Of a stretch of DNA of 64,000 bases, positions 54,001-57,000 are shown piece after piece (within the stretch, counting starts at the first letter, position 1; every line of letters begins with the position of its first letter). Source of the stretch: an uncultured Candidatus Saccharibacteria bacterium. Lineage in GTDB: Bacteria; Patescibacteriota; Doudnabacteria; UBA920. Position numbers: made by a program. The stretch spans positions 233,798 to 297,797 of the forward strand of contig CAZHIA010000002.1 in the NCBI GenBank assembly GCA_964532425.1. Direction: 5' to 3'.

Positions 54001-57000
54001 CTGTTTTCGATCACGCCTGAGGCCGGGCCTTCAATGAGGGACAGGGTATGCCGGGCGAAGGAATCTTCGAGCCGGAACTTTAGCAGTAACAAGGCTTCGA
54101 TTTGCGCCACTGACAGTTTGTGGGTGTTCACGCTATCCTCCTTGGAGATATGAGAACCTGCCAGTGTAGCATTGATTGAATAGTCAGTCAATGCGGCTTT
54201 AGAAGCATTTAAGCATATAAACATGAAAACAACTTTACCGATGGAAGGATGTTGCAGGAATGATTAAATGCTTCTCTATGTGAATGTGTATATGAAAAAG
54301 CCGCAGGTGCTCCCTGCGGCTTTGTGTCGAATTATCTGATGTTCGATCAGACAGTGTCCCAGACAAACAACCCCGCGGTCGTAGAAGGGTCGGAGTAGGT
54401 ATTGTTGACTTTGACTACAATCCCTCCTGTCTTTCCGGTACCAGAGGGAAACATGGCGAGATGCCAACAGATATCATCGTCGAGAATGGAAACATTCGCG
54501 GCTTGCAGTTTGGGCAAATGGCTGCCTCCGGCCAGGAGTACTTCCGGATACCAGGCCATTGCCGTGATCCATTCCAAGGCGCCGGCGAGAAGGAATCCGG
54601 GCGGCAAGTTGAACGATTGTCTGATGCATGCAGAATAGTTAAAACCTGCCAGCGCCATAGGCAGATAGAGTCCTATGACCGGTACAGTCTGCAGCTTATA
54701 GAGCAGTTCGTCATATTCTCCGCGCGGGGCAGGAGCGGTGTTGTTCCGGAGCGTACCCTGGGCCAGGAGCGGAAGCAGGTGTGCGGATTCGAACATCTGG
54801 TACGAGGTGTGGATGGCAAATGGAAGGAGTTGTTCCTCAACGAGTCCGCCGTAATCGCTTTCACCGATAGCAGGAAGCACGATGGGCAGCACAGTGCCGT
54901 TGAGTGCGTTTTTCAGCAGGGGATGCCGACGGATTTTTTCCAGCATATCCGCCAGTCGGCATTCGGCTCTGGCAGTTTCGGGAAAGACCCAGTCCGATGG
55001 AGCGAATTTTTTTATGCGCTCGAGCCGGTCTGTGATGCTGTAAAACTGCACGAGTGCAAATGTGCGATTATCGCCGTTTCGGTAGATCTCAGGACGGTTC
55101 TGTCCGTCGGCTCTCGCGGTAAAACAATCATTTTCGGCGTCCCAGTATAGGCCGGGAATGGATTGTTCCGGAATTCTCCGTCCGCATTCATCAAACAATT
55201 CTTGGGTTGTATTCATTGCCCCTCCTTGTATGACAGTGTATGTACGACGGACAAGACAGTATTCTGTTTATTTCTCTACTGCGTAATTGACATTTTCCAG
55301 TTACCTTTATATAGTATGAGGCTGTACAGAAGGAGGGTCTATGGATTTTTTTCTGGAATATCTCTCCCAGATAAAAACTAGAATCTACTGGGAAAAGGTG
55401 GCTTTAGCTGCCATCCTGCTTTTCGGGCTCAGTAATCGTTCACTTCAGTTCCAGGTTATCGCATTCCTGGTAATCTCGCTGGCGTTTCCCGTGCTCCTTG
55501 TATACCACAACAGGTCTGCTCACGAAGAGGTCGCGGAAGATTCGAAATGACATCAAAAGCAGCGGTCAGTTTTTGGCAGGACCGCTGCTTTAATATTTTA
55601 GATATTCAACTTGATCGACTGGGCGATTTTTTCTCCGACTACCGCAGCCAGTTGTTCCATAGAGGCCTTGCGGATATTAGCAACCGTACCAAATTTTTCT
55701 TTTAAGAGCTTTTTAGTTTTTGGCCCGATGCCAGGCACGTTGTCGAGCGCGGACCGGACTGCCTGTTTGGATCTAAGATCTCGATGGAACGTAATGCCGA
55801 AGCGGTGGGCTTCGTCGCGCAAGCGTTGGAGCATCTGCAAGGCCGGGTCGTCGTGCGAGAGGATAATGGGTTCGCTTTCTCCGGGCATAAATATCTCTTC
55901 AATGCGTTTGGCCAGTCCGATCACTTTTAACTTTTCACTTTGAACTTTGAACTTGTCCATCACTTCCAGTGCTGCACCGAGCTGTCCTTTGCCGCCGTCG
56001 ATGACAATTAAATCAGGGAGAGGCCATGTCTGTTTGTCATTGCGAGGAGTCGGGGCTTTAACCGGCGACGAAGCAATCTTATCACCCGTGGTAAGGATTG
56101 CCGCGGCCTCGGATGCATCCGGCCTCGTAATGACACTGCGTGAGAATCGACGGGTCAGCATTTCCTTCATCATGGCAAAATCATCCGGGGTCTTTTTGCC
56201 CTGGATTTTGAATTTGCGGTATTCGGACTTGACCGGAAGGCCGTTTTTAAAGACGACCATGCTGCCGACCGGATTCGTACCCTGGGTGTTGGAAATATCG
56301 TAACACTCAATACGCTCCGGGATTTTTTCCAGGTGGAGTTCGCTTTTGAGTGTTTCTAGCGCGCCCTGGATGCGGTCCAAATGCCCGGCCTGTGAGGATA
56401 GCCAGTTCTTTAAATATTCTTCGGCGTTCTTTTGGCCCAGGCGAACCAGCTCCGCCGCCTTGCCTTTTTTGGGAACTGTCACTTCGGTTTTATGATTGAA
56501 CCGGCTGCGGACAATGTGATCAATCAATTCGGGATCTTCCGCCTCTTGCGCGAAAATCATCCGTGGAGCGTCGGAAGTCTCCAGATAATATTGTTCGAGG
56601 AAAGTTTGGATAACCTCTCCCAGCCCTTCTTCTGCAAAGAAAGGGGCGGCACCATCTCCTTCTCCTTGCTGAGGAGAAGGCGGGGATGAGGTTTTTTTAA
56701 CGGTATCATGGTTCAAGCGACTGTAGTGCAGGCCCGTGGCCTGCTGAGGAGGCAGAGCAGGGCCCTGCGCTACATCTTGGGGCGTTTGCTCGTATTTTTC
56801 TGAATGGACTCGACGGGTAGAGCCGATTTCAAAGGTAAAGTTTTCCTTGTCTATCAGTTTTCCATGTCTGACTTTGAAGAGGTTAATGCACGCATACCCG
56901 GATTCGGTGGATGCTGAAACCACGTCCCACGACACCGGTTTATTGAGAATGACTGTTTGCTTTTCATCCAGCAGTTCGAGCGCCTGCAGCTGGTCGCGCA

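Follow-up and report, generated by a model that had tools for sequence, protein, structure and literature searches.

Repetitive extragenic palindromic (REP) sequences were divided by Di Nocera, De Gregorio & Rocco (2013, BMC Genomics 14:522; PMC3733652) into GTAG- and CGTC-tagged super-families found in eight phyla. These authors described dimers with variable spacers as well as REPs located entirely within open reading frames (ORFs), where they encode 20–30 aa, notably in genes for excinuclease ABC, UvrD, RecBCD and PolA, and they speculated on REP effects on the activity or expression of repair genes. The REP-tagged uvrC genes listed there (R. conorii RC0864 and X. autotrophicus Xaut_2344) both carry CGTC-type units. 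Here, we describe a GTAG-tagged REP family, referred to as family A, in a 64-kb stretch of DNA from an uncultured Candidatus Saccharibacteria bacterium of the Doudnabacteria lineage (contig CAZHIA010000002.1, positions 233,798 to 297,797; hereafter the window), where one inverted pair of units lies in frame within uvrC.

Family A resembles the GTAG REPs of that survey in the one-ended, unpaired GTAG on a GC-rich stem (5–13 bp in the survey), in the opposed dimers with variable spacers, in the mostly intergenic location, in the presence of several families per genome and in the occurrence of some units in frame within genes (PMC3733652). In contrast to the listed uvrC cases, the uvrC unit described here is GTAG-type, its host belongs to the Patescibacteria or candidate phyla radiation (CPR) outside the eight phyla surveyed, and the protein loop that takes up the REP doublet also houses another double-hairpin element of unrelated sequence. 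A term search of the text and supplements of PMC3733652 did not find the stem GCAGGCC.

Similarities also exist to the REP doublets termed REPINs and their REP-associated tyrosine transposases (RAYTs) (Nunvar 2010, PMC2817692; Bertels & Rainey 2011, PMC3116915; Bertels 2017, PMC5581495; Quentin 2018, PMC6006769), including the folding of doublets into long hairpins, the GTAG 5' of the hairpin foot, the GC-rich basal stem and, in relatives of the host, the flanking of a Y1/HUH transposase gene by the same REP. Recognition and cutting of hairpin and GTAG by TnpA-REP/RAYT are credited to Nunvar 2010, Ton-Hoang 2012 and Messing 2012, as cited in PMC3733652 and PMC6006769. As in REPINs, inverted units fold as one long hairpin and four of the five loci are doublets, whereas the conserved spacing and spacer sequence that characterise the replicating unit of Bertels & Rainey are absent. 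Further differences from the REPIN/RAYT systems are an internal in-frame hairpin in the RayT ORFs of relatives and the lack of a partner RayT in the 68 kb searched around the locus. A literature search gave no paper joining RAYT or REPIN with Patescibacteria.

In their behavior, the units also recall the Rickettsia palindromic elements (RPEs), in-frame palindromic selfish DNA in housekeeping genes (Ogata et al., 2000, as summarised in PMC10969869), which likewise add a peptide segment compatible with the protein fold. This likeness is confined to behavior: RPE-1 measures about 100–150 bp, encodes a conserved peptide, is not known to have a RAYT link and resides in obligate intracellular alphaproteobacteria, whereas our CPR element consists of a 23-nt unit and a 55-nt doublet. 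Miniature inverted-repeat transposable elements are comparably small, non-autonomous, multi-copy and able to make in-frame fusions; unlike these, family A is a tagged hairpin instead of terminal inverted repeats around a core, and target-site duplications are missing at its five loci. Since intragenic REPs, including those in uvrC (PMC3733652), and the Rickettsia palindromic elements precede it, the finding is a known kind of element in a new lineage, with a composite insertion and three different palindromes in one gene as its local twists.

Anatomy and copies of the GTAG-tagged hairpin

A pattern scan of the window with the 23-mer TGTAGYGCAGGCCCGYGGCCTGC revealed five copies without mismatch, at 1522(+), 56722(+), 58737(+), 58786–58808(−) and 60424(+), one copy with one mismatch at 1710–1732(−) and one with two mismatches at 58062(+). 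Allowing up to three mismatches, the pattern TGTAGYGCAGGCC-NNN-GGCCTGC matched seven times, compared to 0.00 expected from 100 dinucleotide shuffles; the repeated 23-mer family proposed by a sequence-only reading of this DNA is hence real. Sequence inspection and a looser pattern added two decayed inverted partners at 56752–56774(−) and 58113–58135(−), which brings the family to nine units at five loci, i.e., four inverted doublets with outward-facing tags, an arrangement reminiscent of REPINs or BIMEs, and one singlet. The six single copies named earlier thus fell short of the full inventory, as the 1710–1732(−) unit and both decayed partners had been overlooked; the last of the six shifts by one base, from 60423–60445 to 60424–60446.

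In each unit, (T)GTAG and one base (Y) are followed by the 7-bp stem GCAGGCC/GGCCTGC, which encloses a loop of three nucleotides (CGY) and not of four, as read before. Pairing in the 58062 copy is retained by compensatory G>C and C>G exchanges (GCAGCCC...GGGCTGC). The unpaired GTAG was found on exactly one side in all seven intact cores of the window and in all cores of 18 CPR loci. It reads TGTAG nearly throughout, the variants being AGTAG in the flank and CGTAG in the internal copy of L131, a contig of a relative discussed below; in the decayed 58113–58135 unit the tag has mutated to CTAG. With a palindrome in the short range of 20–40 bp, a GC-rich stem in which at least three of the four basal bases are G or C, a one-sided unpaired tag (GTAG or GTGG in this class) and a mostly extragenic location, the family A hairpin is a GTAG-tagged REP.

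Similarity among the units ends at about 24 nt, beyond which the flanks are unrelated (alignment A4). Inspection of these flanks showed no direct repeats or target-site duplication at any of the five loci, and nothing was shared as a conserved target apart from the T preceding GTAG. The doublet spacers are unrelated in sequence; in the window their lengths are 7, 26, 28 and 165 nt, compared to 6–34 nt in relatives.

The longest of these spacers separates the units at 1522–1544(+) and 1710–1732(−). Within uvrC, the perfect copy at 56722–56744(+) is paired with the decayed unit TGTAGCGCAGGGCCCTGCTCTGC at 56752–56774(−), whose stem carries a deletion. Upstream of this gene follow the non-coding doublet 58062–58084(+)/58113–58135(−) and the intact, intergenic doublet 58737–58759(+)/58786–58808(−), which has a 26-nt spacer and lies downstream of a terminator-like site (58626–58655). 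The singlet at 60424–60446(+) is placed between convergent genes that have their own terminator-like sites (60338–60365 and 60481–60506). Altogether, four of the five loci are intergenic and lie apart from such sites.

Folded as DNA, the 58737/58786 doublet forms a long hairpin of −31.9 kcal/mol (z −7.0), in agreement with the inverted partnership noticed in the sequence-only reading, and the 58062/58113 doublet one of −23.7 kcal/mol (z −7.4). The uvrC doublet folds weakly (−16.8 kcal/mol as DNA, z −1.9) because one arm carries the deletion, and the intragenic elements were not outliers in a local-folding scan. A role of family A as intrinsic terminators was considered and rejected, since no T-run directly follows the stem and the terminator-like sites of the neighboring genes are separate; the 60424 unit is a marginal match of the terminator scan, with its T-run coming after the CTACA tag. 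Rfam gave nothing at gathering score in the whole window, and the 58737 doublet produced only chance miRNA-like matches.

In-frame insertions in UvrC

The minus-strand ORF 55598–58147 is UvrC, with Pfam matches to GIY-YIG, UVR, UvrC_RNaseH, UvrC_RNaseH_dom and HHH and with 5895 homologues, the best named ones belonging to Patescibacteria/Candidatus Doudnabacteria. The canonical GIY-YIG start, MSELKSK, is located at 57757 and is preceded by a domain of about 80 aa beginning with MHKKLIK at 57997, which is common to seven orthologues (P0002/3/4/6/18/69/117). Including this conserved extension, uvrC spans 55601–57997(−) and encodes 799 aa; the ORF stays open up to 58147 only because five of the six reading frames of a REP unit are free of stop codons. 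As the 58062/58113 doublet lies 65–138 nt upstream of the conserved start, it is most likely 5'-untranslated or promoter DNA outside the protein. The earlier proposal that two copies are translated consequently does not hold for this one, while the 56722 copy does lie within the UvrC frame and encodes QQATGLHYS on the minus strand (aa 338–346, numbered from MSELKSK). In the extension itself (57758–57997, minus strand), which has no Pfam match, a VFRNRQGDIVFVGSFRQFVKRL stretch resembles the GIY-YIG hairpin GVYQFSNKDGEVIYIGKAKNLKSRV and suggests a degenerate duplicated half-domain.

In an alignment of the window UvrC with 20 orthologues (A1, 21 sequences), the REP doublet is, by the most parsimonious placement, part of a composite in-frame insertion of about 57 aa (about aa 325–381, PQD...GLGE; 56615–56785, minus strand; boundaries approximate) between the conserved Y-E-x-T (Y-E/K-x-E/T) and V-I-Q-T-F. 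The segment is missing from all 20 orthologues, which confirms the insertion that had been suspected. Between ENF-x-x-E and V/I-Q-x-F-L-E-Q-Y-Y, the window protein has 72 residues compared to about 15–25 in most orthologues, and the Pfam match to PF22920 (UvrC_RNaseH) is split in two by the insertion. The decayed arm contributes the peptide DVAQGPALP. A peptide scan of 120 homologues found the REP-A peptide in this UvrC and in none of the 119 others; by this comparison, the REP insertion is lineage-specific.

The same insertion holds a second, unrelated element with a double pyrimidine/purine hairpin (56620–56690, minus strand), laid out as CCTTCTCCT-cagca-AGGAGAAGG ... CCCTTTCTT-tgcag-AAGAAGGG and encoding SPPSPQQGEGDGAAPFFAEEGLGE. 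It aligns with intergenic copies at 16115–16210 and 23005–23095 (alignment A3; 72% mean column identity), with the hairpin architecture kept. A third in-frame palindrome of about 100 nt, TGTCATTACGAGG...CCTCGCAATGACA, occupies 56035–56135(−), some 200 aa downstream, within a 37-aa insertion (aa 541–577, SVITRP...PRNDKQT); at this site, residues 81 and 82 of the Thermotoga maritima structure (2NRT) are contiguous.

Other homologues carry palindrome-type peptides in these loops, which hence are recurrent landing sites. VIAR...RNDK-type peptides occupy the site of the third palindrome in eight of the 120 homologues, PLLxKEG-type peptides the same loops in P0014, P0016 and P0034, and VG...PT-type peptides those in P0049 and P0030. 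The UvrC of P0009 has the peptide RRHSEGAHKAEESQ at two hot spots (A1 columns ~256–300 and ~460–520), which implies that one element landed twice in this gene.

AlphaFold, run with A1, assigned pLDDT values below 50 to residues 313–375 and 544–575, and 70–88 to the flanking strand 300–310 and helix 379–393; the inserted segments are therefore predicted to be disordered. All columns invariant across the 21 sequences are retained, including Y18, Y29, R39, D487, D587 and H651, among them the catalytic Tyr/Arg of the GIY-YIG domain and the D-D-H of the C-terminal nuclease. From its sequence, this UvrC looks functional, with floppy extra loops. The idea of a repetitive GC-hairpin family with an in-frame insertion in uvrC is borne out in this respect, and the description of the gene as essential was too strong.

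REP units and RayT genes in relatives

Further instances were sought in a genome scan with one genome per species, in which counts are lower bounds (i.e., at least the number found) and matches are dominated by high-GC genomes and by unrelated phyla. Among the matches listed, the tagged core occurs in several Doudnabacteria metagenome-assembled genomes (MAGs) and in a Saccharibacteria MAG, often as doublets, and core matches also appear in Verrucomicrobiota, Holophagae and others. The strict 23-mer was found on 14 short metagenome contigs, none of which derives from this organism. One Doudnabacteria MAG contig (L006) is partly syntenic with the window and has a family A REP in its uvrA-uvrC spacer (4082–4103); a different Y1_Tnp gene (YHIYNRGN type, 209 aa; 411–1040) adjoins uvrA on this contig.

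In four relatives, family A units flank a Y1_Tnp gene: on both sides in L129 (directly 5' and also 3') and in the 33-kb contig L131, where all three local copies share a loop variant; directly 5', with another copy further downstream, in L120; and directly 5' in L114, a Saccharibacteria contig that came out of the genome scan. These genes encode 161–162 aa in L129, L120 and L114 (161–169 aa overall), and the L129-type protein contains the motifs PNHLHG (PNHxHG) and SFYDHVIR (alignment A2). It scores 29.9 bits against Pfam Y1_Tnp (cut-off 23) and 67.5 bits against NF047646, the REP-associated tyrosine transposase of NCBIfam, which is below the cut-off of 80. Judged by these scores, it counts as a relative rather than as the curated REP_Tyr_transpos equivalog; JGI names the family "REP element-mobilizing transposase RayT". 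In L131, a palindrome, TGTCATTGCGAGG...CGCGATGACA (6598–6680), directly upstream of the RayT gene and within the 3' part of a called recX (6209–6751), shares its terminal motif with the third insert of UvrC.

All eight RayT loci with readable DNA contain an in-frame, GC-rich hairpin with a CTAC tag (plus GTAG when symmetric), which begins 11–36 nt past the HxHG codons, right after the HUH strand. Its coordinates are 684–705 in L129, ~770–800 in L120, 2219–2240 in L114, 7045–7061 in L131, 3246–3275 in L132, ~1753–1781 in L134, ~1753–1780 in L135 and ~1771–1799 in L136. Five different stems occupy the same protein position in these loci, which in a comparison of this kind is covariation for a DNA or RNA structure inside the RayT ORF. 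The embedded hairpin equals the flanking REP on both gene flanks in L129, L131 and L132; a match lies on the 5' flank in L114 and both 5' and downstream in L120, and L135 has a second copy in an apparent duplicated gene fragment 3' of the RayT gene. L134 and L136 showed no flanking copy within 160 nt.

At the protein level, the site is a hypervariable loop (A2), and a palindrome-type peptide is present in this post-HUH loop in at least 64 of 114 homologues with the HUH motif. The RayT clade with the embedded hairpin is widespread among CPR and further uncultured phyla. Term searches of key REP/RAYT literature found no mention of such a hairpin. Orientation and reading frame (QAxGLHY) are identical between the REP copy in UvrC and that in the transposase. 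A tentative idea, to which we give limited credence, is that the embedded copy could be a site of autoregulation or else the master or seed copy from which the family derives, that the REP would thereby be selected for translatability, and that excision-repair genes could be preferred rather than random sinks.

Exact matches inside other CPR genes require a different reading. In MutS (L097, 3902–3923), the candidate in-frame insertion was discarded as the native VAQAAGLP motif; when the exact 22-mers in MurC (L016, 5726–5747) and AtpH (L093, 2138–2159) were compared with solved homologues, the MurC alignment was gapless at the site and that of AtpH had a single one-residue gap. As far as these alignments tell, the three matches are native or convergent sequence. 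Since they align without an insertion, an exact match alone proves none, and the case for UvrC is made by the doublet together with the orthologue gap.

Origin of the uvrC doublet and its implications

We consider it likely that a REP doublet of the RAYT type entered a permissive loop of uvrC, where it is a tolerated passenger that is now decaying. By analogy with the described systems, REP units would be non-autonomous single-strand-DNA elements, and a Y1/HUH transposase (RAYT/TnpA-REP) supplied in trans would recognise the single-stranded hairpin with its 5' GTAG and cut there, thereby spreading units and doublets without target duplications. One doublet would have landed in a surface loop where the RNase-H-like domain of UvrC begins and where members of this clade have repeatedly gained insertions. 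The insert could have survived because five of the six REP frames are stop-free, the frame was kept and the disordered loop lies away from the catalytic residues, and one arm would have decayed after insertion. Most likely, the insertion thus represents a tolerated passenger rather than a functional module; mobilisation by a RAYT in this genome and the neutrality of the insertion are what we infer from this comparison.

Several points weigh against this explanation. Copy counts refer to the 64 kb of the window, and tblastn found no RAYT homologue in the window, the 4 kb beyond it or contig L133; two, and then 120, RayT homologues matched the window only at REP-encoded peptides, and a Pfam scan of 20 long window ORFs gave no Y1_Tnp. 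In view of the variable spacers, the two arms of a doublet may not be mobilised together as a conserved entity. Four of the five REP loci are crowded into 3.7 kb around uvrC, and uvrC contains three different palindromic elements while no other of the ~55 window genes was seen with one, a concentration that exceeds what would be expected from simple tolerance. With the nearest insertion-free orthologue at only ~63% identity, the ends of the insertion can be placed approximately but not to the exact base, and translation of the segment is presumed.

The uneven distribution of the palindromes could alternatively reflect selection, with REPs ending up preferentially in nucleotide-excision-repair genes and altering their activity or expression, e.g., via repair or mutation rate or an mRNA hairpin. 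Consistent with this, uvrC is the sole gene with such elements in the window, orthologues have independently gained other palindromic peptides at the same loops (P0009, P0049, P0030, P0014, P0016, P0034), the Doudnabacteria relative L006 has its REP next to uvrC, and UvrABCD, RecBCD and PolA genes are often the only REP-tagged genes of a species (PMC3733652). We nevertheless regard selection as unlikely, as the inserts occupy loops that are length-variable across the clade and predicted to be disordered, the REP arm within uvrC is decaying and the REP peptide is confined to this one lineage among 120 homologues.

Slightly less probable still is a real hairpin family that was not moved by a RAYT in this genome and was spread by recombination or gene conversion or by another transposase, or that is a relic of a lost system. 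The missing RAYT in 68 kb, the variable spacers without target-site duplication and the local clustering of copies around uvrC would fit such an origin, and species with REPs lacking a matching RAYT have been reported (PMC3733652). Yet several related contigs have identical REP units on the flanks of their RayT genes, and the GTAG is strictly one-sided in every copy, as expected of a recognised site. That uvrC is a decaying pseudogene accumulating junk insertions, as its three to four insertions might suggest, is very improbable given the uninterrupted 799-codon ORF, the retention of every invariant column including the catalytic residues, the good scores of all five Pfam domains and the in-frame, stop-free state of every insert. 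We give hardly any weight to a chance resemblance of native coding sequence, for which the MutS, MurC and AtpH lookalikes are precedents, or to an assembly artefact, as UvrC has a doublet and not a single match, no aligned orthologue has the segment, the 23/23 match equals that of the intergenic copies, and an independent Logan contig (SRR11567520) is identical to the window over 13.3 kb including the uvrC insertion.

A generic search of the window for perfect, GC-rich hairpins preceded by GTAG gave 18 sites where 1.0 was expected, and the genome hence contains several GTAG-tagged families. Family B, TGTAGGGGCGGGC-ATT-GCCCGCCC (also written GGGCGGGC-ATT-GCCCGCCC), occurs at 13484–13507(+), where a T-run follows, and as a second exact copy at 18366–18389. 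The related family TGTAGGGGCGGGCATTGCCCGCCC of the sequence-only reading is thus exact at these two sites only; the third position given for it, 47625, is occupied by a TGTAG-tagged palindrome that is longer and does not belong to this family. A further GTAG-tagged hairpin, TGTAGGGGAAGCTATCAGCTTCCC (GGGAAGC-TATCA-GCTTCCC; 1676–1699, minus strand), is nested in the spacer of the 1522/1732 doublet. The symmetric GTAG...CTAC hairpin TGTAGGGAACGGTTTCAAACCGTTCCCTACG at 49836–49866 (GTAGGGAACGGTTTCAAACCGTTCCCTAC at 49837) is near-identical to the hairpin embedded in the L134 RayT gene, with a 1-nt loop difference; the peptide encoded by the latter, VGNGLKPFPT, recurs in several RayT homologues.

The remaining features of the window are side observations. 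A low-GC island at 23675–30600 (GC 0.38–0.42 compared to ~0.50) opens with a large serine recombinase (Resolvase+Recombinase; 23678–25324) and includes an rRNA adenine dimethylase (Erm/KsgA-type; 28714–29652) and an APH-family phosphotransferase (29666–30598). The island probably represents a mobile element that has integrated and carries resistance-like genes. The double-hairpin copy at 23005–23095 lies ~600 nt before the recombinase gene. AT-rich arrays with a 9-nt period (TTGTCAATT / AATTGACAA) in inverted orientation are located at 6076–6175, 7199–7296 and 34317–34422, the first two bracketing a thioredoxin-reductase-like gene (6221–7219), and look like clustered binding sites. Between the REP loci on either side, 58948–60330 encodes a 460-aa protein with many CxxC/CxxxxC motifs and no Pfam match. 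Three direct-repeat pairs of 68–115 nt (19565–19679/19919–20033, 52783–52887/53134–53238 and 50334–50401/50655–50722), 88–96% identical and ~320–354 nt apart, lie in or near intergenic regions, and one of them adjoins tRNA-Leu (50755–50841).

For genome annotation, our analysis carries three warnings. REP units, being stop-free in five of six frames, can inflate ORFs, as in the false N-terminal extension observed here; the length variation of CPR UvrC stems largely from palindromic inserts; and exact REP matches inside genes can be native and are then false positives in counts of intragenic REPs.

With regard to biology, the finding brings selfish hairpins of the REP/RayT type into the candidate phyla radiation, a group with small genomes that are generally regarded as streamlined, and it independently adds to the unexplained pattern that excision-repair genes are most often REP-decorated among coding sequences. 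If it proves to be unreported, the hairpin within the RayT ORF would offer a handle on the origin of a REP family and on its matching to a transposase. Should the REP indeed be selected for translatability in its own transposase gene, this would explain how it slips harmlessly into host ORFs, and, together with the repeated hits in uvrC, the embedded copy would make excision-repair genes preferred rather than random sinks of these elements.

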